Shown here piece by piece: positions 606-58,856 of a DNA stretch of 64,000 nt. The stretch is from positions 11,682,161 through 11,746,160 of the forward strand of contig CAVNZM010000001.1 in NCBI GenBank assembly GCA_963693365.1. The letters run 5' to 3'. The notes beneath the pieces are model-generated. The model was not told the DNA's origin, did not search any database, and saw nothing but the letters and a program-made list of their open reading frames with translations. The position numbers and the translations under genes are program-made. The DNA comes from Amoebidium appalachense (Eukaryota > Protista > Ichthyosporea). How positions within the stretch are numbered: the first letter of the stretch is position 1; every line of letters starts with the position of its first letter.

Positions 606-14956
<14,351 letters not shown>

Positions 14957-19275: not shown

Positions 19276-20269
19276 GGTGCACGTGGGGTCGGTGGGGGTA
19301 GGTAACTCTACTTGTTCATCTACAAGTTCTATCTCATCTTCACTCTCACTGTCTGTGACAGGAATCTCTACTTGTTGGATGTCTCCATCTGGATCTTAAT
19401 CACTATCACTCTCTAGCTCGCTACTTGTGTGTTCACTGTCTTCTTCATCTATTAAAGTTAGCTGATTGCGCAGAACTACTTCTGTGGTACCGTCAAAATC
19501 AAACTTTACTTTCCATTCACTGTCTTCGTTTGCCTTGCATCATTTCACTACTGTGCCTACCAGTATTTGTGTGTCCCAGCTCAGGTCGAACTTCTTGTAA
19601 GACCAACGTGTGGTGTCATCTGTGAAATCTTCCCCCTGAACCCCGTCAAATATGTATGCAAAACAACAGACACGAGCTCCAGAATAAAGTGGCTCTATTG
19701 GGTCTAATGTTTCGGCCATGTTGGGCGCTCATCTTTCACATGAAATCCATGGCTTGTTGTGTTCGCGGACCAAGCAAGTTTCGTCCGTTTGATCATGAAT
19801 CATGTTGTTGTCGAGCATGAATTCAAAAACTTGCAACAGCGTCGGCAACCAATAAAAGCTAGGGAAAGCCTTGTTAGTTACCGTACCAAAGACAAAAAAG
19901 GTGTAAACTTATGTTTTCTTACTGGCTGTACAAAAAAAAGCGTGCTCCTGGGCCCCAATAGCTCGCGGTATCCTTCCGAAACAAGCATTCCTAAAGTACT
20001 GCTTGCTTCATTCCGATTGGTTGTCACACCACGGGGTTTCCCGATTGTTCTTCGAATGACATTTTTTATCACTATCAGACAGTTCTCCAATATTAGAACA
20101 GAAAACGGTCTATACCCAGATGGCCAGATGGCCAGGTCAAATTCAGTGTGTGAAAAGAAGGTGGATAAAACGGGATAAAACGGGGAGCCAAAATGACCTG
20201 GCCATCTGGCCATGTGGCCATGGAATCTCTATATCTAAAAATAGCTGCCACTGCGCCGGGGCCTGGTTC

Positions 20270-20850
20270 CGGGAGGCAGGGGGGCAGGGGGGCAGGGGTG
20301 GCAGGGGGACACTCACTGCCACCACTGGGGGCCTGGTTCCGGGAGGCAGGGGGGCAGGGGGGCAGAGGAGGCAGAGGAGGCAGAGGAGGCAGAGGAGGCA
20401 GAGGAGGCAGAGGAGGCAGAGGAGCAGGCGAGACTGGCATGCCCCTCACGGGGGAGGGATTTGTGTGTGCTTATTAAGACACTCACTGCCACCACTGGGG
20501 GCCTGGTTCCGGCAGGAGGGGGGGCAGGGGGGGGGGAGGGGGGCAGGGGGGCAGGGGGGGGGAGGGGGGCAGGGGGGGGCACACGTGCAGGGAGGCAGGG
20601 GGCACACGTGCAGGGAGGCAGGGGGGGCAGGGGGGGCACACGTGCAGGGAGGCAGGGGGCACACGTGCAGGGAGGCAGGGGGGCACACGTGCAGGGAGGC
20701 AGGGGGGCACACGTGCAGGGAGGCAGGGGGGCAGGGGGGGCACACGTGCAGGGAGGCAGGGGGGCAGGGGGGGCACACGTGCAGGGAGGCAGGGGGGCAC
20801 ACGTGCAGGGAGGCAGGGGGGGCAGGGGGGGGGAGGGGGGGGGGGGGGGG
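20270..20850. repeat. GC-rich subterminal repeats: 9-bp gcagaggag array and ~22-bp ggggcacacgtgcagggaggca array
   Basis: Visible tandem units, each 22-mer containing CACGTG. Mirrored at ~57985-58600. Confidence 0.85.
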
Positions 20851-20880
20851 GGTGGATAAATGTTGTGTGTGCATATGTAT

Positions 20881-21690
20881 GTTGGTGCCAAGAGGCAGCG
20901 CCCTACACGTGTGGTGTCTAAACAGCCTGTAGGCATGCTCCGTGTGCAGGCACCAATTTCTACCCTCTTCTGGTTGGTGCCAAGAGGCAGCGCCCTACAC
21001 GCGTGGTGTCTAAACAGCCTATAGGCATGCTTCGTGTGCAGGCACCAATTTCTACCCTCTTCTGGTTGGTGCCAAGAGGCAGCGCCCTACACGCGTGGTG
21101 TCTAAACAGCCTATAGGCATGCTCCGTGTGCAGGCACCAATTTCTACCCTCTTCTGGTTGGTGCCAAGAGGCAGCGCCCTACACATGTGGTGTCTAAACA
21201 GCCTATAGGCATGCTCCGTGTGCAGGCACCAATTTTCTACCCTCTTCTGGTTGGTGCCAAGAGGCAGCGCCCTACACATGTGGTGTCTAAACAGCCTATA
21301 GGCATGCTCCGTGTGCAGGCACCAATTTCTACCCTCTTCTGGTTGGTGCCAAGAGGCAGCGCCCTACACGCGTGGTGTCTAAACAGCCTATAGGCATGCT
21401 TCGTGTGCAGGCACCAATTTCTACCCTCTTCTGGTTGGTGCCAAGAGGCAGCGCCCTACACGTGTGGTGTCTAAACAGCCTATAGGCATGCTCCGTGTGC
21501 AGGCACCAATTTCTACCCTCTTCTGGTTGGTGCCAAGAGGCAGCGCCCTACACATGTGGTGTCTAAACAGCCTATAGGCATGCTCCGTGTGCAGGCACCA
21601 ATTTCTACCCTCTTCTGGTTGGTGCCAAGAGGCAGCGCCCTACACATGTGGTGTCTAAACAGCCTATAGGCATGCTCCGTGTGCAGGCAC
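20881..21690. repeat. 92-bp tandem array, ~9 copies
   Basis: Unit gttggtgccaagaggcagcgccctacacgtgtggtgtctaaacagcctataggcatgctccgtgtgcaggcaccaatttctaccctcttctg starts at 20881, 20973, 21065 and so on, with no spacers. Confidence 0.95.
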
Positions 21691-21989
21691 TAATTTGTTG
21701 TGCATTCCTTTTTTGGTTAGATCTATACCCGGCCAATGGTCAGCAGCCACGGGTTTGTTTTCATCAAGCTTAGACGTGATACTTTGCCAATCATCAAGGC
21801 CGTTTGAGTGACAATGACCGTTGATTGGACAGATCTATCCCATTGAACCTTGGCACCATTGCTGAAAGCTGCTTTGTACCGTGGCATATAAAAGCAGCAC
21901 ACACGGTCACGTTCACTCATTTCAACACTGACACTCAATAGTAAAAGGCGACACACAACAAACTTGTTTTTCAAACACTCACACGAAAC

Positions 21990-23153
21990 ATGGATTCTTT
22001 GAAAGAGGAGCTTCAACAGCTGCAGAAGCGCTTTGATTTTCTGTACACGGACCATTCGTCCCGCTTAACGGCCCTGCACACCGACCTCATCAGCCTCCGC
22101 AGTCAAGTGACCAATGAGAATGCTGCGCGTACGCCCCGACCCCCCCAACCCCAGCCCTCTGATGTAGAGGCACGACTGAGGGCAGCCGAAGAGCAGATCA
22201 AGACCCTGCAGGCCGAGCTTGCCAGCCTGCAACGGGCTGCAGCACCCCGCCGGGATGGCCAGGTGGCCTATGAAAACTACATTTTCAGTGGCCCTCGCAA
22301 GACTACCCCTGCCGCCAACACCACCACTGTGACTGCTGACCCCACCCCTGCCGCCAACACCACCACTGTGACTGCCCCCACCCCTGCCGCAAAGACCACC
22401 CCTGTGACTGCCCCCACCCCTGTCGCAAAGACCACCCCTGTGACTGCCCCCACCCCTGTTGCAAAGACCACCCCTGTGACTGCCCCCACCCCTGCCGCCA
22501 AAACCGCCCCTGCCAAGGCCACCCCTACCACCAAGACCACTCCTGCCAAGACCACCCCTACCACCAAGACCACTCCTGCCAAGACCACCCCTACCACCAA
22601 GACCACTCCTGCCAAGACCACCCCTGCCGCTAAGCCCAGGCCCAAGCACACCAAAACACCTGAGACTTCGTTGCATGACCATACGATGGACCTCGATGCA
22701 CAGCTAACTAGTGTGAGGGGGGAGCTCCAGAATGCTCGAGAGCGTGTCAAAGAGGCAAAGGCGGCTGAAGATGAAATAGCGGAGGGCCTGGCCCTTGCTG
22801 CTGTGTGTGCCGCCCAAAACACCATAAAAAGCATCCGAAGGAAGATTCTGCGACGGGAGAAGAACTTGAAGGCATACACAGGTGGTAATGAGTCTGTCTC
22901 TTCACCTGCCTCACCCGCCAAACGCGTCCATGATCAATGTGATTGGGACTCAGATGAAGCATTCAACCCCAAGCGGCTCAAACGACGGGCAAATCAGGTA
23001 CTCGATGATATGACAGATGACGAATCTGCGTCTGATCGTGAGTCGGTCTTGTATGACCACAAACCTGAACCCAAACATAAACAAACTGAAGAAATTCCCC
23101 TCATTGATCTTGACCAGGAAGAGTTTGACCAGTATGAGCATGAGATGTACTGA
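21990..23153 (+). CDS. Hypothetical 387-aa coiled-coil protein with Pro/Thr/Ala/Lys repeat linker, NLS-like PKRLKRR and acidic tail
   Basis: Long ATG ORF with TATAAAA at ~21887 and heptad-like segments. Confidence 0.75.
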   Translation: MDSLKEELQQLQKRFDFLYTDHSSRLTALHTDLISLRSQVTNENAARTPRPPQPQPSDVEARLRAAEEQIKTLQAELASLQRAAAPRRDGQVAYENYIFSGPRKTTPAANTTTVTADPTPAANTTTVTAPTPAAKTTPVTAPTPVAKTTPVTAPTPVAKTTPVTAPTPAAKTAPAKATPTTKTTPAKTTPTTKTTPAKTTPTTKTTPAKTTPAAKPRPKHTKTPETSLHDHTMDLDAQLTSVRGELQNARERVKEAKAAEDEIAEGLALAAVCAAQNTIKSIRRKILRREKNLKAYTGGNESVSSPASPAKRVHDQCDWDSDEAFNPKRLKRRANQVLDDMTDDESASDRESVLYDHKPEPKHKQTEEIPLIDLDQEEFDQYEHEMY

Positions 23154-23557
23154 TTTGATTGGTCGACTAAGTGGCATTCTCTTTTGATTTGTATTTGAAT
23201 TGATCGGTCTTGATTTATTTGTTTCTTTTCTCTTTTAGTTTGTATTTGAATATACTCGGTCCAAGTTGATTTGTTCTTTGTAATCTGACTAGACTATCAT
23301 GTACGTACTTACTCTTTTTCTATACAATCACTTGTGTTCATATTAAAGGATTCTGTGTACGTGGACCACGGAAACATACACCATTTTTTGCAGTGCTTCA
23401 TGCTATAAAATAACCATGAGAGACACAAACAAATACACTAAGTGTGTACACGTCTACCCATAGGCCCAAGTGTTGACATGTCTGCCCACAGTTCCCTAAA
23501 GCTTAAAGCACACATCTGCCTGTATGCCATAAACTTTACTTTCACCACAAGACACCC

Positions 23558-24095
23558 ACCTAAGTACACTCTGCACCACCCTAAGTACACTGTGGTGCAC
23601 AGCCCCACCCTAAGTACACGTCTGCACCACCCTAAGTACACGTCTGCACCACCCTAAGTACACGTCTGCACCACCCTAAGTACACGTCTGCACCACCCTA
23701 AGTACACGTCTGCACCACCCTAAGTACACGTCTGCACCACCCTAAGTACACGTCTGCACCACCCTAAGTACACGTCTGCACCACCCTAAGTACACGTCTG
23801 CACCACCCTAAGTTCACGTCTGCACCACCCTAAGTACCTCTACACCATCCTAAGTACACGTCTGCACAGCCACCCTTTAAGTACACGTCTGCACAGCCCC
23901 ACCCTTTAAGTACACGTCTGCACAGCCCCACCCTTTAAGTACACGTCTGCACAGCCCCATCCTTTAAGTACACGTCTGCACCACCCTAAGTACACGTCTG
24001 CACCACCCTAAGTACACGTCTGCACCACCCTAAGTACACTCTGCACAGCCCCACCCTTTAAGTACACGTCTGCACAGCCCCACCCTAAGTACACT
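23558..24095. repeat. 22-bp minisatellite (ccctaagtacacgtctgcacca)
   Basis: More than 20 tandem units between two convergent ORFs. Confidence 0.95.
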
Positions 24096-24173
24096 CAATG
24101 TTAAGTACATCTGCACACAAGCACTAGAATAGCCTGAGGCTACTCTCTAATAGCGGCCCCTTTTTTCACCGTG

Positions 24174-24884
24174 TCAAGGCCTGTTGGTATCTCCGTCTGA
24201 AGACTCGGAAGACGCGCCCTCCTCAGAGCCTGGCGGCTGTCTCCGTCTCCGCCCCAGTTTGAAGACCCTCAAACAAGCTTTAGTTATCGGAGACAGAGGC
24301 TCCCCCTCCGACCCAGAGCTGCTGGCTTCACTGGCTCGTGCCCTTTTCTGCTGTCCCCGTGTCAAGGTCTTGGACTCGGAAGACGAATACTCCTCAGAAG
24401 ACGAGTACTCCTCATGTTCTGACCGCCGTCCCCGTGTCAAGGTCTTGTACCAAGCTAACGCGGCCCGAGACACAGGCACTCCTGGAGGAAGGTAATCCAA
24501 CTCCGACCCAGAGCTACTGACTTTCTCTCGTGTCCTCTTCTGCTGTCTTCGTGGTTTCTCCCGTGTCTTGGACCCCTGTGTGATGTGCAAACGTGAGCGC
24601 TGCAGGGGCTGGGGGGCCAAGTCCACGGGATAGGAGCTGCCATGCTCGCCAGCACGAAGTGCAGGTGCCGCTGCCAGGACAGGGGGTGCCACGGTTGCTG
24701 CTGGGGGTGCCACGGTTGCTGCTGTAGTGGTGCGCGAAGCCATGCGGGTGTGCCTAGCAAGGGCGCGCGCGAAACGGGCCTGGGTGTCCCGCAGGGCCTT
24801 TGCATCCTCCTCCAAAGTCTTGAGTCTTGTCTCTATTTTTTCAGCGCGCCTTCCTAGATCTTTGATGTCATCTTTAGAACTCAT
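24174..24884 (-). CDS. Hypothetical protein with N-terminal coiled coil and Ser/Glu/Arg-rich repeats
   Basis: ATG ORF (MSSKDD...) with TATAAAA at ~24970-24976 on the minus strand and a CCAAT-rich upstream region. Confidence 0.65.
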   Translation of the reverse strand: MSSKDDIKDLGRRAEKIETRLKTLEEDAKALRDTQARFARALARHTRMASRTTTAATVAPPAATVAPPVLAAAPALRAGEHGSSYPVDLAPQPLQRSRLHITQGSKTREKPRRQQKRTREKVSSSGSELDYLPPGVPVSRAALAWYKTLTRGRRSEHEEYSSSEEYSSSESKTLTRGQQKRARASEASSSGSEGEPLSPITKACLRVFKLGRRRRQPPGSEEGASSESSDGDTNRP

Positions 24885-25840
24885 TTTCGGGACAGTTGGA
24901 TGTACGTTGTGTGCCAAGGGAGAAGCTAGCTAACATGGAAAAGGTGTGTGGATTGAAGAGAGTATGGGCTTTTATATGCCGTGCCCGGCTTTGGCATCAG
25001 ATGCTTTATTGCATTAGATTGGTTGGATATACCCCAGCCGCGACGCTTGATTGGATCTAGAGATCGCGTGAACATCTGATTGGCTAATTGTCATTTGGGC
25101 ATCTTGGTGTATCCGATAAGTTGGGGCTCAACCAAATCTGCTGACTGATTGATGAATTCTGATTGGATCAACAAGAGCATGTTTTGACTTGAGAATTGTC
25201 ATTTTGACAGATTGGATTGTAATCCGATCTTTGCAACTTGGCCGTCAGTGTTTGAACACAATGTATTTTGATGTAGCAACTCCTAAAAAAACACGAATAT
25301 GCTTCCCAACAATTACGAGCATTATTCTGTCTATCAGGGATACAAAAATTGGTCAGGAAAAGTACACAATCACATGGTGCTGACAGATTGCGCACGATGT
25401 CAACTGATAGCGAATCGGTGCACTGCCTGCTGGGAACCACATGTCACTTTTTGAGCAGCACTTGGGAAACTCGCGCTCACGTGGATCCAATACTTATACA
25501 CCAATCAGAAGTGTGCGCACAAAAAGGGGTCCGCGCTGGATACAAATGGCTTGGGTGTGTGTGTGTGTGTGTGTTTTATTTTGCATTGTGTAAGGGGCGC
25601 TTTTTTTTGTTCACACTGCTTTACTTCGTGTAAATAATCAGTGGCGAGTTTTTTTAGTTCACGGTGTGTTTGCGCATCATAGGATTTTGCTTTATTTTGC
25701 ACTGTGTAAGAGGGACGGTTTTTTTGGGTCACACTTTTGCTTCGTAAAAATAAGAGGGACGTTTTTTTTTTGTTCACACTGCTTTTCTTCGTGGATAGAA
25801 AAACTAAACACCTCCTGCCCAACCGGCTGCAAACGACACA

Positions 25841-26185
25841 ATGGATGAAACAGATACACAGCGCCAAGATGCACACACCAAGCAGCTGCAAGAGACCAAC
25901 AAGATGCTGAAGGAGGCCAACGAGGGGCTGCACGGGCTGATCCAGCAGCTGAGGGAGTTGAACAACGACATGGACAAGGACAACGACGCGCTGCGCACAA
26001 TTAACAAGAACCAGCGGGAGGTGATCAAGGGCCTGCAAGAGGAGCGCAACAAGGTGTGCGAAGAGAACAAGAATTTGGTGGTGGAGAACCAAGAGCTGCA
26101 GCTGGAAAACGACAAGCTGAAGAAGCAAAAGGACTTTCTACGGGCCTGTCTCATACGGCTGGGCCAGTCCGCTAAGACTCCATGA
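25841..26185 (+). CDS. Hypothetical 114-aa coiled-coil protein
   Basis: ATG ORF with heptad periodicity and strongly G/C-ending codons. Confidence 0.7.
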   Translation: MDETDTQRQDAHTKQLQETNKMLKEANEGLHGLIQQLRELNNDMDKDNDALRTINKNQREVIKGLQEERNKVCEENKNLVVENQELQLENDKLKKQKDFLRACLIRLGQSAKTP

Positions 26186-26253
26186 AACGGATTGATACAA
26201 TCATGAGGGATAACACTTGCGAGTGATTTCATTCTGTTACTTAGTATGTATTA

Positions 26254-26556
26254 ACGTCTAAGCTTGATGAAAACAAACCCGTGGCTGCTAACCATTGGCC
26301 GGGTATAGATCTAACCAAAAAAGGAAGGCACAACAAATTAGTGCCCTGCACACGGAGCATGCCTATAGGCTGTTTAGACACCACACGTGTAGAGCACTGC
26401 CTCTTGGCACCAACCAGAAGAGGGTAGAAATCAGTGCCCTGCACACAGAGCATGCCTATAGGCTGTTTAGACACCACACGTGTAGGGCACTGCCTCTTGG
26501 CACCAACCAGAAGAGGGTAGAAATCAGTGCCCTGCACACGGGGCATGCCTATAGGC
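26254..26556. repeat. Inverted ~300-bp copy of 21478-21777 (about 2.3 units of the 92/93-bp repeat plus its unique flank)
   Basis: acgtctaagcttgatgaaaacaaacccgtgg... is the reverse complement of 21691-21777 and continues into 93-bp variants of the repeat. Confidence 0.92.
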
Positions 26557-27207
26557 AGTGATGGGGTGAGTAGGATGAGTAGCTTGAGTACCTACTCATC
26601 TGGTCTCCCCCCGGGTGTTCCAATTTCCTTTTGGATTGAGATTTAGGTATACCCGTAGCCCACAGTAGATGAGTACGTACTCATCCTACTCATCCTACTC
26701 ACTATATGACAATTGCATATTTTTATACCTAAAAAGGAAACCTTTACCATATTTGGGTGAGTAACATCTAGTGGGGGAAACTTGTCTGTGTTACTCAGAA
26801 TGAGTACCCTGAGTAAGATATTGTTACTCATGAAACAAATAAAAAACCATTAATTTTATGCTCAGAGTAACTTGAATTACTCAGGGCAAAGGAAAACGTT
26901 GGCTTTTTTATGCCTTAACCTCAACGATAACAGATTCTCGTGGGTGGAAGCGCAACTGGCCGGAGTGTGGACGGAACTTCAGGCAGAAGGCTCACTTGGA
27001 AACCCATCTGCGAAAACACACAGGCGCCCTGTTCAAATGTGATTATCCGGAGTGTTCAGCTGCATATACAACCCCAGCTTCGTTGTCAACACACATGTGG
27101 AAACACAAGTCAGAAAAACCCTTTATTTGCAGCGATTGTGGCAAGGAATTTATACATCCAAGTTCATATCGTGTGCATCAGAGATCGCATTCTGGCGGGA
27201 ACTCTTT

Positions 27208-27375
27208 CAGATGTGATTATATGGGATGCAGATACAGTTGAACCTACCATCCTTTCCTAAACTTGCCAACATGACCACGGGTCATGAAAGGAGCTAGGCT
27301 AGTGGCATGGTCATGCAAGATTACAAGAACCTTGGCCTATACCGGCAGAGGCCCGTGGCTGCCCACGGGCCGCGT
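27208..27375 (-). ncRNA. Predicted Fanzor omegaRNA (scaffold ~27375-27228 plus ~20-nt guide from the flank)
   Basis: Overlaps the ORF 3' end and runs to the element end. Stems ggcccgtgg/ccacgggcc, catgacc/ggtcatg and tcctttc/gaaagga. 5' end is a guess. Confidence 0.7.
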
Positions 27376-29337
27376 ACATGAGCGAATAAATATGTTGCGA
27401 GCCCCATTGACATCTCTGTCAATGACCAACCCACAATGTTTACACTTGAACACCTTAGAACCTCCAAGACCCTGGTTGATCTGTCCACACCTCCCACACG
27501 TTTTGCTGGTGTAGGATTCATTGACAAACACCACTGCAGTTCCCCGTTGCTCTGCTTTACACACCAGCCGTTGTCGAAACTTGGCATGCTGCCAACCCAT
27601 CATGCATCGGACGCTCTTGCTGCGAAGTTTCCTCTTGCCCCTACGTGACATACTCCCAGAGTCAAACCAAGGAATAACTACCACGTCGAAGTTGGAGGTG
27701 AGCCATCCAGCGGCCTTCCAGTGTGCGTCGGCAATAAGGTTCTGAACCCTTCGGCGCATTCGGAACAGGGCCTTTCTCATCCGATACCGACTTTTGTGTT
27801 TAACAGATGTCTGTGTCAAACGACTTTTCAGCTGGTCCTCACGGTTGAGCAGCCGACTGATGCGTTTGATGTCCCCGGGAAAAAGGTGTGTGACCTCCTT
27901 GTTACAGGGGTCATAGACAGTCTGGAAGGTTCTAATACCAGGATCAAGTGCACATATCCGCCTATCGTGTTGTTCGGTTAGAGGGGTTTGGCTATCACCC
28001 CCCGGTACCCGATATGTAATTGATAGGTAGAAATGCCCGTCCCTGGTCATCAAGAGCCGCCCATCTGTTTCCATTTCACCCGGTTGTACTTGCTCCGCAA
28101 GTTTCAAATGCCCACCTTCGGGGCACATCGTTGGGGCAAAAATGGCGTGTGTACCATTGAACTTGGTGAGTGCGCGGGGTATTAGAATTGATTGATATCC
28201 GTCCTTTTTGGATCTATACCGGACAAAGACACTGGTTGCCTTTAAACCCCTCTTCTTAGCATAACGTGCCTTTGCCTTCTGCGAACCCACGGCCCCGAAA
28301 AAATCATCCACCGCGCCGTTACGAAGAAGGTTTGGCACACGCTTCTTGTATTCTTCGCAGTCTGGAATGCTTTTGTTGTTGACAAATTGCTTGCGATATT
28401 CGGTTTTGTCCATGCTTCCCTTCAGGTCGTGAAGACCTACACATTGATTGAAGATCTTCCTTGCCACTCCGAAGCATTCGACCAACCATCGCTTTTGTTC
28501 CTTTGTTGGGATCACACGGATGAGTTTTGTGCGGACCAAAAGCTCGGTCCTTTCCCGCAAAGCCAAAACGTTCACTCCACAGGCCACATAATCGTCAAGC
28601 TCCGGAGGCCGTCCATTAAGACGATCCTTCAAATAGAGTTTCTGCTCTTTCTTCATGTGTTTCGATGCCATGCGCTTTAGTCTTTTGACGTTCCTTTCCG
28701 CTTCCCTCTGTTCCATTGCACTTGTTTCCGTACTTGCGACGTCCATGATGCTTACAGACAAAGTGGGTGGTGACGGCGATAAGGTCTTCCGCGAGTTCAT
28801 CTGTATTGGACTCGTCTGCGTGATTGAGAACCACGATTTTGACCCCATATGCTTCCAGAATCCACCACAGCAGGTCACCGGCGAGTCGACACAGCCTGTC
28901 ATTGTGGGCAACCACAATCTCTCTGACATTTCCCTTGCTTGCCTGTTCCAAAATGGACAGCAGTCCTCTGCGCTTAACGTTGACGCCACTCCCGACATCA
29001 GTGACAATTTCGTGATTGGGACACCGTTCACGCAGATACTGAACTTGCCGGTCGAGGTCCGTGCGCTGTTTGTGGGATGAGACCCGTGCGTAGGCAACAT
29101 CAACTCTGTCTGTTCGTGTGTCCGTTTCACACCCGAGCAACGTGTCAATGTCCGAGGTGTTGTACAGGCGGACATTGCCTGGTGTTCTAACAATTCGGAT
29201 GCGTCCCTGGTTTGCCCATCTCCGAAGTGAGGATCCCGATACCCCGTACTTCTTTCTGGATTGAAGTCCAGATATGTACTTGGTGCCATTGTGGGGCATA
29301 CTATAAGGTATAGAAAATATTTGAAGTTGCCCAACAT
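27337..29337 (-). CDS. tnpB: Fanzor2 / TnpB-family RNA-guided endonuclease, intact; true start uncertain
   Basis: IRVIPTKEQKRWL..FGVARKIFN; RuvC-I ALDPGIRTF; the canonical RuvC-II Glu is replaced (VVIPWF) with the alternative Glu in VNESYTSKTC; zinc ribbon CGRC/CKHC; RuvC-III DRDVNGARNI. Confidence 0.93.
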   Translation of the reverse strand: MLGNFKYFLYLIVCPTMAPSTYLDFNPERSTGYRDPHFGDGQTRDASELLEHQAMSACTTPRTLTRCSGVKRTHEQTELMLPTHGSHPTNSARTSTGKFSICVNGVPITKLSLMSGVASTLSAEDCCPFWNRQAREMSERLWLPTMTGCVDSPVTCCGGFWKHMGSKSWFSITQTSPIQMNSRKTLSPSPPTLSVSIMDVASTETSAMEQREAERNVKRLKRMASKHMKKEQKLYLKDRLNGRPPELDDYVACGVNVLALRERTELLVRTKLIRVIPTKEQKRWLVECFGVARKIFNQCVGLHDLKGSMDKTEYRKQFVNNKSIPDCEEYKKRVPNLLRNGAVDDFFGAVGSQKAKARYAKKRGLKATSVFVRYRSKKDGYQSILIPRALTKFNGTHAIFAPTMCPEGGHLKLAEQVQPGEMETDGRLLMTRDGHFYLSITYRVPGGDSQTPLTEQHDRRICALDPGIRTFQTVYDPCNKEVTHLFPGDIKRISRLLNREDQLKSRLTQTSVKHKSRYRMRKALFRMRRRVQNLIADAHWKAAGWLTSNFDVVVIPWFDSGSMSRRGKRKLRSKSVRCMMGWQHAKFRQRLVCKAEQRGTAVVFVNESYTSKTCGRCGQINQGLGGSKVFKCKHCGLVIDRDVNGARNIFIRSCTRPVGSHGPLPV
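28616..29299 (-). CDS. tnpA: IS607-type serine recombinase (TnpA) with N-terminal MerR-like HTH
   Basis: YGVSGSSLRRWANQGRI..RTPGNVRLY HTH; catalytic YARVSS..Q..DL..Q; DVGSGVN.KRRGL; DRLCR; ELAEDL. Confidence 0.93.
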   Translation of the reverse strand: MPHNGTKYISGLQSRKKYGVSGSSLRRWANQGRIRIVRTPGNVRLYNTSDIDTLLGCETDTRTDRVDVAYARVSSHKQRTDLDRQVQYLRERCPNHEIVTDVGSGVNVKRRGLLSILEQASKGNVREIVVAHNDRLCRLAGDLLWWILEAYGVKIVVLNHADESNTDELAEDLIAVTTHFVCKHHGRRKYGNKCNGTEGSGKERQKTKAHGIETHEERAETLFEGSS

Positions 29338-29689
29338 TGGCAGTTTCAGATAACAAGAATAAGTGTGCCCTTTGTGACACTTGCAGTGGGTTGTTGTTGT
29401 TGCCTTTTACAACCACCGCTCTGGACACAAGATCGAACAGCTATCAAATTGACCATATATATGACAAAGAAAAACAAGGTTGCCAAAGATCATTGTAGCA
29501 GCAAATCATACCGGCACAAGGCCAGTTTGACCGTCCACCAAAGAGTGCACACGGGCGTAAGACCATATTCCTGCCATATCTGCGCTGCCACTTTTCATAC
29601 TCGATCCTCGTGGAGTCATCACGAGCGAGCACACAGACAATTGGTCGAAACAAGCAAAGTTGTGGATGGCATTCCACAAAATTTTACCC

Positions 29690-29820: not shown

Positions 29821-29997
29821 TGGGCCTCGCGGGCGAGAAGGGTGGGGGGGGATCATTTCTCTGAAAAATACACAAATTTGTGTGCGCACACACAAGCATG
29901 CGCTCGGACGACACGTTGGGTGTGGCCCTGCTTATATACGCGTGCTGCACCATCCGGGGCGCAGTCGCACACACACACGCACTGCGCGATACCTGCA

Positions 29998-32450: not shown

Positions 32451-32481
<31 letters not shown>

Positions 32482-49409: not shown

Positions 49410-51411
49410 ATGTTGGGCAACTTCAAATATTTTCTATACCTTATAGTATGCCCCACAATGGCACCAAGTACATATCTGGACTTCAATCCAGAAAGAAGTA
49501 CGGGGTATCGGGATCCTCACTTCGGAGATGGGCAAACCAGGGACGCATCCGAATTGTTAGAACACCAGGCAATGTCCGCCTGTACAACACCTCGGACATT
49601 GACACGTTGCTCGGGTGTGAAACGGACACACGAACAGACAGAGTTGATGTTGCCTACGCACGGGTCTCATCCCACAAACAGCGCACGGACCTCGACCGGC
49701 AAGTTCAGTATCTGCGTGAACGGTGTCCCAATCACGAAATTGTCACTGATGTCGGGAGTGGCGTCAACTTTAAGCGCAGAGGACTGCTGTCCATTTTGGA
49801 ACAGGCAAGCAAGGGAAATGTCAGAGAGATTGTGGTTGCCCACAATGACAGGCTGTGTCGACTCGCCGGTGACCTGCTGTGGTGGATTCTGGAAGCATAT
49901 GGGGTCAAAATCGTGGTTCTCAATCACGCAGACGAGTCCAATACAGATGAACTCGCGGAAGACCTTATCGCCGTCACCACCCACTTTGTCTGTAAGCATC
50001 ATGGACGTCGCAAGTACGGAAACAAGTGCAATGGAACAGAGGGAAGCGGAAAGGAACGTCAAAAGACTAAAGCGCATGGCATCGAAACACATGAAGAAAG
50101 AGCAGAAACTCTATTTGAAGGATTGTCTTAATGGACGGCCTCCGGAGCTTGACGATTATGTGGCCTGTGGAGTGAACGTTTTGGCTTTGCGGGAAAGGAC
50201 CGAGCTTTTGGTCCGCACAAAACTCATCCGTGTGATCCCAACAAAGGAACAAAAGCGATGGTTGGTCGAATGCTTCGGAGTGGCAAGGAAGATCTTCAAT
50301 CAATGTGTAGGTCTTCACGACCTGAAGGGAAGCATGGACAAAACCGAATATCGCAAGCAATTTGTCAACAACAAAAGCATTCCAGACTGCGAAGAATACA
50401 AGAAGCGTGTGCCAAACCTTCTTCGTAACGGCGCGGTGGATGATTTTTTCGGGGCCGTGGGTTCGCAGAAGGCAAAGGCACGTTATGCTAAGAAGAGGGG
50501 TTTAAAGGCAACCAGTGTCTTTGTCCGGTATAGATCCAAAAAGGACGGATATCAATCAATTCTAATACCCCGCGCACTCACCAAGTTCAATGGTACACAC
50601 GCCATTTTTGCCCCAACGATGTGCCCCGAAGGTGGGCATTTGAAACTTGCGGAGCAAGTACAACCGGGTGAAATGGAAACAGATGGGCGGCTCTTGATGA
50701 CCAGGGACGGGCATTTCTACCTATCAATTACATATCGGGTACCGGGGGGTGATAGCCAAACCCCTCTAACCGAACAACACGATAGGCGGATATGTGCACT
50801 TGATCCTGGTATTAGAACCTTCCAGACTGTCTATGACCCCTGTAACAAGGAGGTCACACACCTTTTTCCCCGGGGACATCAAACGCATCAGTCGGCTGCT
50901 CAACCGTGAGGACCAGCTGAAAAGTCGTTTGACACAGACATCTGTTAAACACAAAAGTCGGTATCGGATGAGAAAGGCCCTGTTCCGAATGCGCCGAAGG
51001 GTTCAGAACCTTATTGCCGACGCACACTGGAAGGCCGCTGGATGGCTCACCTCCAACTTCGACGTGGTAGTTATTCCTTGGTTTGACTCTGGGAGTATGT
51101 CACGTAGGGGCAAGAGGAAACTTCGCAGCAAGAGCGTCCGATGCATGATGGGTTGGCAGCATGCCAAGTTTCGACAACGGCTGGTGTGTAAAGCAGAGCA
51201 ACGGGGAACTGCAGTGGTGTTTGTCAATGAATCCTACACCAGCAAAACGTGTGGGAGGTGTGGACAGATCAACCAGGGTCTTGGAGGTTCTAAGGTGTTC
51301 AAGTGTAAACATTGTGGGTTGGTCATTGACAGAGATGTCAATGGGGCTCGCAACATATTTATTCGCTCATGTACGCGGCCCGTGGGCAGCCACGGGCCTC
51401 TGCCGGTATAG
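49410..51411 (+). CDS. tnpB: Fanzor2, mirror copy (+1 C frameshift near 50870)
   Basis: DPGIRTF in the first frame; NESYTSKTC and DRDVNGARNI in the second. Confidence 0.88.
49448..50131 (+). CDS. tnpA: IS607 serine recombinase, mirror copy
   Basis: YARVSS and DVGSGVNFKRRGL. Confidence 0.93.
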   Translation: MPHNGTKYISGLQSRKKYGVSGSSLRRWANQGRIRIVRTPGNVRLYNTSDIDTLLGCETDTRTDRVDVAYARVSSHKQRTDLDRQVQYLRERCPNHEIVTDVGSGVNFKRRGLLSILEQASKGNVREIVVAHNDRLCRLAGDLLWWILEAYGVKIVVLNHADESNTDELAEDLIAVTTHFVCKHHGRRKYGNKCNGTEGSGKERQKTKAHGIETHEERAETLFEGLS

Positions 51412-51540
51412 GCCAAGGTTCTTGTAATCTTGCATGACCATGCCACTAGCCTAGCTCCTTTCATGACCCGTGGTCATGTTGGCAAGTTTAGGAAAGGATG
51501 GTAGGTTCAACTGTATCTGCATCCCATATAATCACATCTG
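51373..51540 (+). ncRNA. Predicted omegaRNA, mirror copy
   Basis: Same stems; guide atcccatataatcacatctg at 51521-51540. Confidence 0.7.
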
Positions 51541-52562
51541 AAAGAGTTCCCGCCAGAATGCGATCTCTGATGCACACGATATGAACTTGGATGTATAAAT
51601 TCCTTGCCACAATCGCTGCAAATAAAGGGTTTTTCTGACTTGTGTTTCCACATGTGTGTTGACAACGAAGCTGGGGTTGTATATGCAGCTGAACACTCCG
51701 GATAATCACATTTGAACAGGGCGCCTGTGTGTTTTCGCAGATGGGTTTCCAAGTGAGCCTTCTGCCTGAAGTTCCGTCCACACTCCGGCCAGTTGCGCTT
51801 CCACCCACGAGAATCTGTTATCGTTGAGGTTAAGGCATAAAAAAGCCAACGTTTTCCTTTGCCCTGAGTAATTCAAGTTACTCTGAGCATAAAATTAATG
51901 GTTTTTTATTTGTTTCATGAGTAACAATATCTTACTCAGGGTACTCATTCTGAGTAACACAGACAAGTTTCCCCCACTAGATGTTACTCACCCAAATATG
52001 GTAAAGGTTTCCTTTTTAGGTATAAAAATATGCAATTGTCATATAGTGAGTAGGATGAGTAGGATGAGTACGTACTCATCTACTGTGGGCTACGGGTATA
52101 CCTAAATCTCAATCCAAAAGGAAATTGGAACACCCGGGGGGAGACCAGATGAGTAGGTACTCAAGCTACTCATCCTACTCACCCCATCACTGCCTATAGG
52201 CATGCCCCGTGTGCAGGGCACTGATTTCTACCCTCTTCTGGTTGGTGCCAAGAGGCAGTGCCCTACACGTGTGGTGTCTAAACAGCCTATAGGCATGCTC
52301 TGTGTGCAGGGCACTGATTTCTACCCTCTTCTGGTTGGTGCCAAGAGGCAGTGCTCTACACGTGTGGTGTCTAAACAGCCTATAGGCATGCTCCGTGTGC
52401 AGGGCACTAATTTGTTGTGCCTTCCTTTTTTGGTTAGATCTATACCCGGCCAATGGTTAGCAGCCACGGGTTTGTTTTCATCAAGCTTAGACGTTAATAC
52501 ATACTAAGTAACAGAATGAAATCACTCGCAAGTGTTATCCCTCATGATTGTATCAATCCGTT

Positions 52563-52907
52563 TCATGGAGTCTTAGCGGACTGGCCCAGCCGTATGAGAC
52601 AGGCCCGTAGAAAGTCCTTTTGCTTCTTCAGCTTGTCGTTTTCCAGCTGCAGCTCTTGGTTCTCCACCACCAAATTCTTGTTCTCTTCGCACACCTTGTT
52701 GCGCTCCTCTTGCAGGCCCTTGATCACCTCCCGCTGGTTCTTGTTAATTGTGCGCAGCGCGTCGTTGTCCTTGTCCATGTCGTTGTTCAACTCCCTCAGC
52801 TGCTGGATCAGCCCGTGCAGCCCCTCGTTGGCCTCCTTCAGCATCTTGTTGGTCTCTTGCAGCTGCTTGGTGTGTGCATCTTGGCGCTGTGTATCTGTTT
52901 CATCCAT
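52563..52907 (-). CDS. 114-aa coiled-coil protein, mirror copy
   Basis: Identical translation. Confidence 0.7.
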   Translation of the reverse strand: MDETDTQRQDAHTKQLQETNKMLKEANEGLHGLIQQLRELNNDMDKDNDALRTINKNQREVIKGLQEERNKVCEENKNLVVENQELQLENDKLKKQKDFLRACLIRLGQSAKTP

Positions 52908-53862
52908 TGTGTCGTTTGCAGCCGGTTGGGCAGGAGGTGTTTAGTTTTTCTATCCACGAAGAAAAGCAGTGTGAACAAAAAAAAAACGTCCCTCTTATTT
53001 TTACGAAGCAAAAGTGTGACCCAAAAAAACCGTCCCTCTTACACAGTGCAAAATAAAGCAAAATCCTATGATGCGCAAACACACCGTGAACTAAAAAAAC
53101 TCGCCACTGATTATTTACACGAAGTAAAGCAGTGTGAACAAAAAAAAGCGCCCCTTACACAATGCAAAATAAAACACACACACACACACACACCAAGCCA
53201 TTTGTATCCAGCGCGGACCCCTTTTTGTGCGCACACTTCTGATTGGTGTATAAGTATTGGATCCACGTGAGCGCGAGTTTCCCAAGTGCTGCTCAAAAAG
53301 TGACATGTGGTTCCCAGCAGGCAGTGCACCGATTCGCTATCAGTTGACATCGTGCGCAATCTGTCAGCACCATGTGATTGTGTACTTTTCCTGACCAATT
53401 TTTGTATCCCTGATAGACAGAATAATGCTCGTAATTGTTGGGAAGCATATTCGTGTTTTTTTAGGAGTTGCTACATCAAAATACATTGTGTTCAAACACT
53501 GACGGCCAAGTTGCAAAGATCGGATTACAATCCAATCTGTCAAAATGACAATTCTCAAGTCAAAACATGCTCTTGTTGATCCAATCAGAATTCATCAATC
53601 AGTCAGCAGATTTGGTTGAGCCCCAACTTATCGGATACACCAAGATGCCCAAATGACAATTAGCCAATCAGATGTTCACGCAATCTCTAGATCCAATCAA
53701 GCGTCGCGGCTGGGGTATATCCAACCAATCTAATGCAATAAAGCATCTGATGCCAAAGCCGGGCACGGCATATAAAAGCCCATACTCTCTTCAATCCACA
53801 CACCTTTTCCATGTTAGCTAGCTTCTCCCTTGGCACACAACGTACATCCAACTGTCCCGAAA

Positions 53863-54573
53863 ATGAGTTCTAAAGATGACATCAAAGATCTAGGAAGGCG
53901 CGCTGAAAAAATAGAGACAAGACTCAAGACTTTGGAGGAGGATGCAAAGGCCCTGCGGGACACCCAGGCCCGTTTCGCGCGCGCCCTTGCTAGGCACACC
54001 CGCATGGCTTCGCGCACCACTACAGCAGCAACCGTGGCACCCCCAGCAGCAACCGTGGCACCCCCTGTCCTGGCAGCGGCACCTGCACTTCGTGCTGGCG
54101 AGCATGGCAGCTCCTATCCCGTGGACTTGGCCCCCCAGCCCCTGCAGCGCTCACGTTTGCACATCACACAGGGGTCCAAGACACGGGAGAAACCACGAAG
54201 ACAGCAGAAGAGGACACGAGAGGAAGTCAGTAGCTCTGGGTCGGAGTTGGATTACCTTCCTCCAGGAGTGCCTGTGTCTCGGGCCGCGTTAGCTTGGTAC
54301 AAGACCTTGACACGGGGACGGCGGTCAGAACATGAGGAGTACTCGTCTTCTGAGGAGTACTCGTCTTCCGAGTCCAAGACCTTGACACGGGGACAGCAGA
54401 AAAGGGCACGAGCCAGTGAAGCCAGCAGCTCTGGGTCGGAGGGGGAGCCTCTGTCTCCGATAACGAAAGCTTGTTTGAGGGTCTTCAAACTGGGGCGGAG
54501 ACGGAGACAGCCGCCAGGCTCTGAGGAGGGCGCGTCTTCCGAGTCTTCAGACGGAGATACCAACAGGCCTTGA
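53863..54573 (+). CDS. Coiled-coil/Ser-rich hypothetical protein, mirror copy
   Basis: TATAAAA at 53771 and an ATG ORF. Confidence 0.65.
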   Translation: MSSKDDIKDLGRRAEKIETRLKTLEEDAKALRDTQARFARALARHTRMASRTTTAATVAPPAATVAPPVLAAAPALRAGEHGSSYPVDLAPQPLQRSRLHITQGSKTREKPRRQQKRTREEVSSSGSELDYLPPGVPVSRAALAWYKTLTRGRRSEHEEYSSSEEYSSSESKTLTRGQQKRARASEASSSGSEGEPLSPITKACLRVFKLGRRRRQPPGSEEGASSESSDGDTNRP

Positions 54574-54651
54574 CACGGTGAAAAAAGGGGCCGCTATTAG
54601 AGAGTAGCCTCAGGCTATTCTAGTGCTTGTGTGCAGATGTACTTAACATTG

Positions 54652-55277
54652 AGTGTACTTAGGGTGGGGCTGTGCAGACGTGTACTTAAAGGGTGGGGCT
54701 GTGCAGAGTGTACTTAGGGTGGTGCAGACGTGTACTTAGGGTGGTGCAGACGTGTACTTAGGGTGGTGCAGACGTGTACTTAAAGGATGGGGCTGTGCAG
54801 ACGTGTACTTAAAGGGTGGGGCTGTGCAGACGTGTACTTAAAGGGTGGGGCTGTGCAGACGTGTACTTAAAGGGTGGCTGTGCAGACGTGTACTTAGGAT
54901 GGTGTAGAGGTACTTAGGGTGGTGCAGACGTGAACTTAGGGTGGTGCAGACGTGTACTTAGGGTGGTGCAGACGTGTACTTAGGGTGGTGCAGACGTGTA
55001 CTTAGGGTGGTGCAGACGTGTACTTAGGGTGGTGCAGACGTGTACTTAGGGTGGTGCAGACGTGTACTTAGGGTGGTGCAGACGTGTACTTAGGGTGGTG
55101 CAGACGTGTACTTAGGGTGGTGCAGACGTGTACTTAGGGTGGTGCAGACGTGTACTTAGGGTGGTGCAGACGTGTACTTAGGGTGGTGCAGACGTGTACT
55201 TAGGGTGGTGCAGACGTGTACTTAGGGTGGGGCTGTGCACCACAGTGTACTTAGGGTGGTGCAGAGTGTACTTAGGT
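54652..55277. repeat. 22-bp minisatellite, mirror copy with 4 extra units
   Basis: The arm-to-arm coordinate offset grows by 88 bp across this array. Confidence 0.92.
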
Positions 55278-55681
55278 GGGTGTCTTGTGGTGAAAGTAAA
55301 GTTTATGGCATACAGGCAGATGTGTGCTTTAAGCCTTAGGGAACTGTGGGCAGACATGTCAACACTTGGGCCTATGGGTAGACGTGTACACACTTAGTGT
55401 ATTTGTTTGTGTCTCTCATGGTTATTTTATAGCATGAAGCACTGCAAAAAATGGTGTATGTTTCCGTGGTCCACGTACACAGAATCCTTTAATATGAACA
55501 CAAGTGATTGTATAGAAAAAGAGTAAGTACGTACATGATAGTCTAGTCAGATTACAAAGAACAAATCAACTTGGACCGAGTATATTCAAATACAAACTAA
55601 AAGAGAAAAGAAACAAATAAATCAAGACCGATCAATTCAAATACAAATCAAAAGAGAATGCCACTTAGTCGACCAATCAAA

Positions 55682-56846
55682 TCAGTACATCTCATGCTCA
55701 TACTGGTCAAACTCTTCCTGGTCAAGATCAATGAGGGGAATTTCTTCAGTTTGTTTATGTTTGGGTTCAGGTTTGCGGTCATACAAGACCGACTCACGAT
55801 CAGACGCAGATTCGTCATCTGTCATATCATCGAGTACCTGATTTGCCCGTCGTTTGAGCCGCTTGGGGTTGAATGCTTCATCTGAGTCCCAATCACATTG
55901 ATCATGGACGCGTTTGGCGGGTGAGGCAGGTGAAGAGACAGACTCATTACCACCTGTGTATGCCTTCAAGTTCTTCTCCCGTCGCAGAATCTTCCTTCGG
56001 ATGCTTTTTATGGTGTTTTGGGCGGCACACACAGCAGCAAGGGCCAGGCCCTCCGCTATTTCATCTTCAGCCGCCTTTGCCTCTTTGACACGCTCTCGAG
56101 CATTCTGGAGCTCCCCCCTCACACTAGTTAGCTGTGCATCGAGGTCCATCGTATGGTCATGCAACGAAGTCTCAGGTGTTTTGGTGTGCTTGGGCCTGGG
56201 CTTAGCGGCAGGGGTGGTCTTGGCAGGAGTGGTCTTGGTGGTAGGGGTGGTCTTGGCAGGAGTGGTCTTGGTGGTAGGGGTGGTCTTGGCAGGAGTGGTC
56301 TTGGTGGTAGGGGTGGCCTTGGCAGGGGCGGTTTTGGCGGCAGGGGTGGGGGCAGTCACAGGGGTGGTCTTTGCAACAGGGGTGGGGGCAGTCACAGGGG
56401 TGGTCTTTGCGACAGGGGTGGGGGCAGTCACAGGGGGTGGTCTTTGCGGCAGGGGTGGGGGCAGTCACAGTGGTGGTGTTGGCGGCAGGGGTGGGGTCAG
56501 CAGTCACAGTGGTGGTGTTGGCGGCAGGGGTAGTCTTGCGAGGGCCACTGAAAATGTAGTTTTCATAGGCCACCTGGCCATCCCGGCGGGGTGCTGCAGC
56601 CCGTTGCAGGCTGGCAAGCTCGGCCTGCAGGGTCTTGATCTGCTCTTCGGCTGCCCTCAGTCGTGCCTCTACATCAGAGGGCTGGGGTTGGGGGGGTCGG
56701 GGCGTACGCGCAGCATTCTCATTGGTCACTTGACTGCGGAGGCTGATGAGGTCGGTGTGCAGGGCCGTTAAGCGGGACGAATGGTCCGTGTACAGAAAAT
56801 CAAAGCGCTTCTGCAGCTGTTGAAGCTCCTCTTTCAAAGAATCCAT
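55682..56846 (-). CDS. 387-aa coiled-coil protein, mirror copy (+1 frameshift near 56435)
   Basis: Two ORF halves match 21990-23153. Confidence 0.7.
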
Positions 56847-57146
56847 GTTTCGTGTGAGTGTTTGAAAAACAAGTTTGTTGTGTGTCGCCTTTTACTATTG
56901 AGTGTCAGTGTTGAAATGAGTGAACGTGACCGTGTGTGCTGCTTTTATATGCCACGGTACAAAGCAGCTTTCAGCAATGGTGCCAAGGTTCAATGGGATA
57001 GATCTGTCCAATCAACGGTCATTGTCACTCAAACGGCCTTGATGATTGGCAAAGTATCACGTCTAAGCTTGATGAAAACAAACCCGTGGCTGCTGACCAT
57101 TGGCCGGGTATAGATCTAACCAAAAAAGGAATGCACAACAAATTAG

Positions 57147-57960
57147 TGCCTGCACACGGAGCATGCCTATAGGCTGTTTAGACACCACATGTGTAGGGCG
57201 CTGCCTCAGAGTCTTGGCACCAACCAGAAGAGGGTAGAAATTGGTGCCTGCACACGGAGCATGCCTATAGGCTGTTTAGACACCACATGTGTAGGGCGCT
57301 GCCTCTTGGCACCAACCAGAAGAGGGTAGAAATTGGTGCCTGCACACGGAGCATGCCTATAGGCTGTTTAGACACCACACGTGTAGGGCGCTGCCTCTTG
57401 GCACCAACCAGAAGAGGGTAGAAATTGGTGCCTGCACACGAAGCATGCCTATAGGCTGTTTAGACACCACGCGTGTAGGGCGCTGCCTCTTGGCACCAAC
57501 CAGAAGAGGGTAGAAATTGGTGCCTGCACACGGAGCATGCCTATAGGCTGTTTAGACACCACATGTGTAGGGCGCTGCCTCTTGGCACCAACCAGAAGAG
57601 GGTAGAAAATTGGTGCCTGCACACGGAGCATGCCTATAGGCTGTTTAGACACCACATGTGTAGGGCGCTGCCTCTTGGCACCAACCAGAAGAGGGTAGAA
57701 ATTGGTGCCTGCACACGGAGCATGCCTATAGGCTGTTTAGACACCACACGTGTAGGGCGCTGCCTCTTGGCACCAACCAGAAGAGGGTAGAAATTGGTGC
57801 CTGCACACGAAGCATGCCTATAGGCTGTTTAGACACCACGCGTGTAGGGCGCTGCCTCTTGGCACCAACCAGAAGAGGGTAGAAATTGGTGCCTGCACAC
57901 GGAGCATGCCTATAGGCTGTTTAGACACCACACGTGTAGGGCGCTGCCTCTTGGCACCAA
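57147..57960. repeat. 92-bp tandem array, mirror copy
   Basis: Reverse complement of 20881-21690, with a 6-bp insertion near 57208. Confidence 0.95.
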
Positions 57961-58856
57961 CATACATATGCACACACAACATTTATCCACCCCCCCCCCC
58001 CCCCCTGCCCCCCCCTGCCCCCCCCCCTGCCTCCCTGCACGTGTGCCCCCCTGCCTCCCTGCACGTGTGCCCCCCCCTGCCCCCCTGCCTCCCTGCACGT
58101 GTGCCCCCCCTGCCCCCCCTGCCTCCCTGCACGTGTGCCCCCCTGCCTCCCTGCACGTGTGCCCCCCTGCCTCCCTGCACGTGTGCCCCCTGCCTCCCTG
58201 CACGTGTGCCCCCCCCTGCCCCCCCTGCCTCCCTGCACGTGTGCCCCCTGCCTCCCTGCACGTGTGCCCCCCCTGCCCCCCCTCCCCCCCCCCCCTGCCC
58301 CCCTGCCCCCCTCCCCCCCCCTGCCCCCCCTCCTGCCGGAACCAGGCCCCCAGTGGTGGCAGTGAGTGTCTTAATAAGCACACACAAATCCCTCCCCCGT
58401 GAGGGGCATGCCAGTCTCGCCTGCTCCTCTGCCTCCTCTGCCTCCTCTGCCTCCTCTGCCTCCTCTGCCTCCTCTGCCTCCTCTGCCTCCTCTGCCCCCC
58501 TGCCCCCCTGCCTCCCGGAACCAGGCCCCCAGTGGTGGCAGTGAGTGTCCCCCTGCCACCCCTGCCCCCCTGCCCCCCTGCCTCCCGGAACCAGGCCCCG
58601 GCGCAGTGGCAGCTATTTTTAGATATAGAGATTCCATGGCCACATGGCCAGATGGCCAGGTCATTTTGGCTCCCCGTTTTATCCCGTTTTATCCACCTTC
58701 TTTTCACACACTGAATTTGACCTGGCCATCTGGCCATCTGGGTATAGACCGTTTTCTGTTCTAATATTGGAGAACTGTCTGATAGTGATAAAAAATGTCA
58801 TTCGAAGAACAATCGGGAAACCCCGTGGTGTGACAACCAATCAGAATGAAGCAATA

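Follow-up and report, generated by a model that had tools for sequence, protein, structure and literature searches.

Polinton-like viruses (PLVs) as well as virophages with superfamily 3 (SF3)/D5 helicases and terminal palindromes are integrated, multi-copy elements of ~20 kb with hairpin-capable ends (PMC11296320; 10.64898/2026.07.28.741278). Transpovirons are a capsid-less, virus-associated type of linear element and encode a fusion of protein-primed DNA polymerase B (pPolB) and a superfamily 1 (SF1) helicase (PMC11161782). Poxvirus and giant-virus terminal repeats, and giant endogenous viral elements (GEVEs), show a hairpin beside tandem arrays, accessory D5-like helicases, intron-poor accessory genes and IS607-Fanzor2 (PMC8956199, PMC11296320, PMC11244446). 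Hairpin ends, fusions of Rep/HUH (histidine-hydrophobic-histidine) domains with SF3 helicases and integration without target duplication are found among parvovirus rolling-hairpin replicons, the Rep elements of CRESS (circular Rep-encoding single-stranded) DNA viruses, Helitrons and Replitrons; Helitrons use an SF1B helicase and Replitrons have none (PMC10288648). In bacteria, the initiator-helicases of Staphylococcus aureus pathogenicity islands (SaPIs) and of NrS-1 carry a C-terminal domain and are paired with a primase (PMC9371898; PDB 6K9C, 6K9E). Here we analysed a 64,000-nucleotide stretch of the ichthyosporean Amoebidium appalachense (assembly GCA_963693365.1, contig CAVNZM010000001.1, positions 11,682,161 to 11,746,160, forward strand; the window, numbered from its first letter), which holds a ~39 kb palindrome with a stand-alone SF3 helicase gene in each arm. 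We find that the palindrome is real in the assembly and that its 19-kb arm is a member of an undescribed multi-copy family. Such a family was described neither in the literature searched, outside which most subscription papers lay, nor in the excerpts of two 2026 PLV surveys (10.64898/2026.10.13.758929; 10.64898/2026.06.19.733378).

Self-BLAST of the window gave a single inverted match at 20003-58854 with 99.3% identity, bearing out the two ~19.4 kb inverted arms described in a first, sequence-only reading of this DNA. Arm A (20003..39361; 19,359 bp) is the probable element monomer, possibly with 100-260 bp of flanking DNA, and arm B (39380..58854; 19,475 bp) is its inverted copy. With the array regions 20250-21700 and 23550-24100 set aside, substitutions separate the two arms at 20 of 17,347 columns (0.12%); 13 are transitions, 6 of these at CpG, and array copy number differs as well. 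The arm-specific substitutions look like real mutation and argue for two genuine arms. The 12 indels are mostly single bases within G/C runs and disrupt different open reading frames (ORFs) in arm A and arm B, suggesting that they are consensus errors. At the centre (39318..39423), a 44-bp perfect stem (39318-39361 / 39380-39423) encloses an 18-nt asymmetric loop (39362-39379). This stem-loop scored a z of -17.7, with 0/200 shuffles as good, and may be an unfolded hairpin end or a fold-back point. A 40-bp tandem array of 4.6 copies (39143..39322) adjoins it, with a mirror copy at 39419-39598. A 22-nt pattern taken from the centre had 0 exact matches in viral contigs.

The family itself was seen in short-read contigs. 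Twenty listed runs carry 29450-39100 or part of it, 16 of them at half or more of its words; they comprise three named studies and nine rows without a study, and several hold only 1-3 million letters of contigs. The contigs of four public runs (among them X1, X6 and X17) were compared over 24100-35300. Because rare variants are lost from contigs, and because the assembly may itself derive from the best of these runs, the comparison is not independent proof. In all four runs, 142-573 contigs per run fell on the region and covered each of its 30 bins, in identity bands from 99+% to under 90%. Two X6 contigs over the nuclease gene described below differ from the window at 1/577 and 53/387 letters, so that at least two subfamilies exist. 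Internally deleted forms are also present: the joints 26909>29872 and 26820>29961 skip 3 kb in 4/4 runs, and region 26254-26705 is skipped or replaced in some other copies (joint 26251>26744). The sequence-only reading had treated the whole 39-kb palindrome as the unit; it probably is not, the 19-kb arm being the member of this polymorphic family.

Summed contig depth, which we used as a pattern only and not as copy number, was lowest over the helicase and the neighbouring 310-aa orphan and higher in the outer parts (X6, 370-925 at the helicase versus 960-3,800; X17, 1.5-11 versus about 370). In X17, depth rose to 40,000-50,000 at 24100-24847, compared to about 10 at the helicase; in this sample the segment seems to be a repeat of its own that has been amplified enormously. 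Between a 2011 and a 2024 run, six allele contigs kept a steady X6/X9 depth ratio of 2.06-2.33, a pattern more in line with fixed copies in the chromosome than with an episome whose level fluctuates. Arm A and three X1 contigs differ at 11/2,059 letters (0.5%), and the alleles at 27026, 28901, 28944 and 29822 are common to both arms and absent from the contigs; at 28978, 29871 and 34361 the contigs show the arm-B state. Since the arms are closer to each other than to the commonest alleles and share alleles of their own, the doubling is likely younger than the divergence of this copy.

The helicase gene (32644..34128, plus strand) encodes a stand-alone SF3 helicase of 494 aa (DUF5906, NrS-1 type) that has DUF5906 as its only domain (E 2.8e-19), lacks a primase domain and is intact in both arms. 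Its family matches the NrS-1 helicase structure (E 2.6e-15; PDB 6K9C, 6K9E). A full phmmer scan with the window helicase gave 30 proteins at E <= 1e-30. A helicase-domain tree was built from 43 rows, namely the window protein and 42 selected, not all, matches, and placed it in a 16-row clade with support of 99/95. The clade proteins P0012-P0025 have only DUF5906/VapE and no primase in Pfam, and come from ENA or Logan assemblies except for two from a Daphnia sinensis assembly. The clade of the SF3 helicase is thus primase-less and has its members almost exclusively in assemblies that lack annotation. The N-terminal part of one of the two Daphnia proteins, P0020, is hydrophobic, as is a segment of the small ORF that lies upstream of the window helicase (32198..32632, plus strand).

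Within the clade, P0013, P0161 and P0025 form a sister trio (support 100/93). At its N-terminus, P0013 matches Rep clusters of the CRESS type (ESM Atlas 0.95; 205/256 features), a lead only, since family shares are just 10-38%, and its residues 25-150 align with residues 19-148 of P0161. Pfam and PHROGs did not detect this Rep/HUH-like domain in P0013 or P0161. As a lead, the sister helicases may pair a Rep/HUH-like domain with an NrS-1/D5-type SF3 helicase, a pairing that was not found in the literature searched. An HUH profile built from the two sister Rep-like domains (two sequences) reached a best E of 0.2 in the window, with no motif II match. Searches of viral contigs (IMG/VR) with the window helicase, the clade queries A1 and A2 and the nuclease returned 0 loci, as did A1 in JGI metagenomes (51/64 parts scanned) and A5 in prokaryote genomes. 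Queries A3, A4 and A5 found 137 distant loci with at most 37% identity (A3/A4 in IMG/VR, only 22-34%), which share no other window gene except for weak Fanzor matches in two.

Directly after the helicase lies a gene (34304..34997, plus strand) that joins a putative nuclease to a paralogue of the domain at the helicase C-terminus. It is frameshifted in arm A, whereas its frame in arm B (43740-44630) is open. The C-domain shares 51% identity with the P0012 helicase C-terminus (E 2e-30), and the N-domain is 34-58% identical to eight cyanobacterial plasmid proteins. The PD-(D/E)xK nuclease label given to it at first goes back to a motif of that kind and found no library support.

Motif scans, Pfam and PHROGs revealed no hallmark of polintons, PLVs, virophages or transpovirons in the window, in agreement with the sequence-only reading. 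Among 705 six-frame segments there was no GxxxxGK[ST] motif of an A32/FtsK packaging ATPase, with one loose match within the TnpA of a nested transposon and no Pfam match; no polB motif that would point to pPolB, the helicase showing DUF5906 only and no PolA- or AEP-SF3 fusion; and no tyrosine recombinase motif, nor a Pfam match to rve. The monomer has no terminal inverted repeats, and neither Pfam nor PHROGs matched a capsid in the window. Giant-virus core genes (major capsid protein (MCP), A32, VLTF3, PolB, primase-fused D5) are also missing from the window, as they would be from a terminal fragment. The capsid candidates are two orphans on the minus strand without library matches, of 310 aa (31185..32117; contig depth low, as for the helicase) and of 172 aa (29998..30516). 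Single-sequence AF2 models of both are strand-rich and of low confidence (pLDDT 35.1 and 32.8, respectively), so that at fold level they do not decide against a capsid. Foldseek with one of these poor models gave 0 BFVD matches at E <= 0.001. The 310-aa orphan had no homologue among 1,791 candidates of near length, and its ESM Atlas score was only 0.77.

Compared to the described systems, the element works like a hairpin replicon or a capsid-less satellite. It shares size, integration, copy number, an SF3 helicase and hairpin-capable ends with PLVs and virophages, but MCP, minor capsid protein (mCP), A32 ATPase, tyrosine recombinase and rve were not found in it, its helicase has no polymerase or primase fusion, and the monomer lacks terminal inverted repeats and a target duplication. 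Transpovirons have a size of 7 kb; the element here is larger, and instead of a pPolB-SF1 (Tlr1-like) helicase it has a stand-alone SF3 helicase. It differs from giant-virus termini and GEVEs by the absence of core genes, its short 18-nt loop, its deleted derivatives and a helicase clade not found in IMG/VR. Unlike parvovirus, CRESS, Helitron and Replitron elements, it has no recognised HUH domain and combines a helicase of NrS-1/D5 type with many accessory genes over 19 kb. With SaPI and NrS-1 it shares the helicase family with its C-terminal domain and the presence of repeat arrays on the element; in contrast to them it is eukaryotic and primase-less, and the C-terminal domain is duplicated onto the putative nuclease.

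The only recombinase in the window belongs to a passenger. A 2,270-bp IS607-type element (27228..29497, minus strand) is inserted at a GCAG core in a C2H2 zinc-finger gene (26876..29751, plus strand). It encodes a TnpA serine recombinase (28616-29299; NF033518, E 7.9e-50, 169 bits versus a cutoff of 110) and a Fanzor2/TnpB that extends to 27337 (NF040570, 131.6 bits versus a cutoff of 100; PF07282, E 1.1e-22), in overlapping frames. The sequence-only reading had noted the nested Fanzor2, which is present, and had missed TnpA, with which the nested part is a complete IS607-type element. The empty site was found as joint 27227>29498 in 4/4 runs, with four letters that fit either side, indicating that IS607-Fanzor2 is absent from other copies of the family. 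Further joints connect its ends to 24892 in 1 run and to 32064 in 4 runs, in each case at a CAG core, which suggests repeated insertion into family copies at such cores, and diverged variants (~14%) occur among the contigs. Having both TnpA and TnpB/Fanzor2 as well as an empty site, and lacking terminal repeats, this part is of a known kind (10.1101/2023.08.09.552727; PMC6188088), but here it is only a passenger, at three positions among the family copies.

The remainder of the arm, from its outer end inwards, begins with G-rich arrays followed by a 92-bp array of 8.9 copies (20271..21696), with shared short motifs by our count. Next come a gene for a 387-aa coiled-coil/Thr-Pro repeat protein (21990..23153, plus strand; frameshifted in arm B), a 22/29-bp tandem array (23553..24094), a 236-aa ORF of unknown function (24174..24884, minus strand), in the region at very high contig depth in X17, and a 114-aa coiled-coil ORF (25841..26185, plus strand). 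An inverted second 92-bp array (94% identical to 21475-21777) and an imperfect 146-nt hairpin occupy 26254..26705; the hairpin (26560-26705) has a z of -7.3, with 0/200 shuffles as good. Beyond the helicase and the nuclease fusion lie genes for a C2H2 zinc-finger protein (35034..35294, plus strand), a patatin-like phospholipase (35486..36397, minus strand; E 6.3e-18) and a Fic-domain protein (36394..37191, minus strand; E 2.3e-14), and a Cys/His-finger orphan adjoins the centre (38257..39121, plus strand), its frame broken near a C-run in both arms. The last had no homologue among 1,250 candidates of near length. Two further fragments were noted: 29506-29856 (minus strand), antisense to the end of the zinc-finger gene and without a library match, which resembles a KilA/Bro-type domain of the kind common in giant viruses, and an open frame at 30548-30892 (plus strand) without a Pfam match or a clear start codon, the end of which resembles a PDZ-like motif.

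Pfam or NCBIfam confirmed the SF3 helicase, Fic, patatin, C2H2 finger and Fanzor assignments of the sequence-only reading. Its BED-like finger found no library support, the sole match being zf-PHD-like and below cutoff, and its dense coding holds for 26876-39121, where the chosen ORFs cover 80%, but less so for the whole arm (63%). None of nine window proteins was present by exact sequence in a collection of 15 billion proteins. There were no RNA runs among the runs listed as carrying 29450-39100, a result that is uninformative on expression.

The surroundings are those of a host chromosome. The intron-rich host gene noted alongside the palindrome is indeed one: the left flank holds transportin-1 (E 1.4e-28; 54/85 residues identical to a solved chain, counted by eye) with GT-AG introns, its identity being high enough to suggest an opisthokont host, probably a unicellular animal relative. 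Within one of these introns (window 11900-12857) lies a ~140-bp repeat in four copies that are 90-94% alike. Between this gene and the arm, a decayed DNA-transposon remnant (17830..20002, minus strand; DDE_Tnp_1_7, E 0.045, below cutoff) lies outside the element. An arm edge within a piggyBac transposon with a matching terminal repeat was considered and is unproven, the match to 17828 not being significant (11/300 shuffles as good). On the right, a 30-bp inverted piece lies exactly at the arm junction and is a copy of sequence from the adjoining element, which resembles a miniature inverted-repeat transposable element (MITE) with 81-bp inverted repeats (58855..59289). Comparison within the window showed the two flanks to be unrelated, with no common target duplication. 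Just inside arm A, an outer stem-loop (20109..20224) has 31-nt arms, 87% complementary, and a 54-nt loop (z -6.2, 0/200 shuffles); it may be the other end of the monomer or a subterminal repeat of the flanking transposon.

Beyond the MITE-like repeat lies a remnant (59431-62573) of a long interspersed nuclear element (LINE), with RNase H and reverse transcriptase fragments across window 59400-63000. In this remnant CGC is strongly depleted (0.17 versus 0.66-0.81 in other CG contexts), a sign that methylation in the host may depend on context; CGC is a methylation context reported for one unicellular animal relative (PMC11244446).

The sequence-only reading had proposed a dimer of a linear element or the terminal part of a larger virus, and both are still the two live readings; what changes is the unit, probably the arm and not the palindrome. 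Our tentative preference, held somewhat short of probable, is that the arm is a copy of a multi-copy polymorphic family, likely a linear hairpin-ended capsid-less replicon, and was likely doubled head-to-head through its hairpin. The wider proposal is more doubtful, though possible: an unnamed class of 19-kb linear hairpin-ended capsid-less elements that replicate by a rolling hairpin with a primase-less NrS-1-type SF3 helicase, partnered by a Rep/HUH-like domain in some relatives and by a nuclease-winged-helix fusion here, that occur as autonomous and deleted copies in protist chromosomes and that can seed giant palindromes.

In such a replicon the C-terminal domain of the helicase would serve to load it on the repeat arrays, by analogy with SaPI Rep helicases on iterons, which are bound by C-terminal winged-helix domains (PMC9371898). 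The nuclease fusion would be steered to the same repeats by its copied C-terminal domain and would nick or resolve the ends, standing in for the HUH domain of the sister helicases; another nicking nuclease in place of HUH has been proposed for SF3 helicases (PMC11296320). A host polymerase would extend the 3' end at the hairpin or nick, so that no primase is needed, and hairpin priming has been proposed for palindrome-ended elements with non-pPolB replication genes (10.64898/2026.07.28.741278). Helicase-less deleted forms could be mobilised in trans. Integration may have occurred by break repair, because there is no target duplication and the right junction carries a templated inverted piece. 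DNA synthesis through the hairpin would then give the head-to-head dimer, either free or by fold-back after integration; coming later than the divergence of this copy, the doubling may reflect the capture of a replication dimer that a minor variant had formed, or else a fold-back of the chromosome at the hairpin.

Several observations weigh against this replicon. Nothing in the window was recognised as an HUH, a resolvase or a protelomerase, and the nuclease label of the ORF after the helicase is presumed from a PD-(D/E)xK-like motif. The aligned Rep-like domains of P0013 and P0161 show by eye no Tyr at the expected motif III position and may thus be inactive. For the Daphnia sinensis helicases P0020 (KAI9549604.1) and P0025 (KAI9549638.1), the longest contig listed is 183,011 bp in each case, a length that a large virus or a large repeat region would fit as well; our guess is a contig from an epibiont, or a large element. 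Some deletion joints carry the label 'between: not known', and the depth ratios of five of them vary (0.79-2.93). The contig comparison spans 24100-35300, and the centre and both junctions lie outside it. At the outer end, 20003-20260 may be host transposon copied along. Lastly, ordinary chromosomal fold-back leaves a short spacer and would equally be expected to give 18 nt (PMC3907307).

The main rival, rather unlikely in our estimate, takes the arm to be a terminal inverted repeat from a giant virus (Nucleocytoviricota) whose telomere is a hairpin of the pox/asfar type and which was endogenised many times, the palindrome being a head-to-head concatemer junction or telomere fold-back and the helicase an accessory terminal-repeat helicase. 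At poxvirus ends tandem arrays stand beside the hairpin, and giant viruses commonly carry Fic, patatin, C2H2 and IS607-Fanzor2 as accessory genes, all of which we count for this origin. The observed over expected CpG ratio (CpG o/e) of the core, 0.89 compared to 0.47 in the host gene, also fits it, as do the hairpin ends of poxviruses (PMC8956199), the repeat-flanked accessory D5-like helicases that entomopoxviruses carry in their terminal repeats (PMC11296320) and the 90 chromosomal giant-virus insertions, none complete, of one protist (PMC11244446). If that protist is the host, the present locus may be one of the insertions annotated in it. However, 19 kb pass without a core gene, at its outer end the arm passes into repeat arrays and DNA of host-like character rather than into further viral genes, IMG/VR holds no close member of the helicase clade, and the 137 distant loci share practically nothing else with the window. 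The deleted forms, being deeper than the helicase core, look like transposon derivatives. Two published cases do not fit the locus: the GEVEs of Euglena, at 86-311 kb and 25-35% GC (PMC12455990), and the Plavaka giant repeats, which are tandem clusters with tyrosine recombinases (PMC11244446). A PLV or virophage with capsid genes (the 310-aa and 172-aa orphans) that have diverged beyond recognition is very unlikely. Entomopoxvirus-associated PLVs had D5-like SF3 helicases without detectable primase, and HHpred first missed their capsids (PMC11296320); the strand-rich models and the size of 19 kb, within the PLV range, would agree. Against such a virus stand the missing second P-loop (A32), the lack of tyrosine recombinase, rve and pPolB motifs and of terminal inverted repeats on the monomer, and the empty BFVD search, made with a poor model.

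That the family is real and the palindrome an assembly artefact, made by reads turning at a hairpin or by a collapsed repeat and joined to an unrelated flank, is improbable. Nanopore reads do turn back where ends are covalently closed (PMC13236599), the ORFs broken by indels are not the same in the two arms, much as with consensus errors, contigs carry the arm-B state at three sites and the two flanks are unrelated. In contrast, the substitutions with their transitions at CpG and the array copy numbers look like real divergence, both arms share alleles that contigs lack, and the templated inverted piece at the right junction would be typical of repair. There is also only a slim chance that the arm is a patchwork of host repeats and captured genes without replication of its own, doubled by ordinary chromosomal fold-back. 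The X17 depth that spans orders of magnitude along the arm, the host-like CpG o/e of the outer 6.6 kb (0.50) and the decayed transposons of the flanks are consistent with a patchwork, but the joints 26909>29872 and 26251>26744 link outer and inner parts in other copies, and both arms have kept an intact helicase, one that is part of a conserved clade and has its own domain duplicated in the neighbouring gene.

Whichever reading holds, a near-perfect 39-kb palindrome that a chromosome has kept offers a test case for rearrangement by fold-back, and the helicase clade is a direct handle for finding more members in long-read protist genomes. If the giant-virus origin were true, the arm would be the telomere of an uncultured virus and would reveal a route of endogenisation through hairpin ends. 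If the capsid-less hairpin replicon that we tentatively prefer is the true one, the family would represent a large capsid-less type of element between parvovirus-style hairpin replicons, transpovirons and giant-virus termini.

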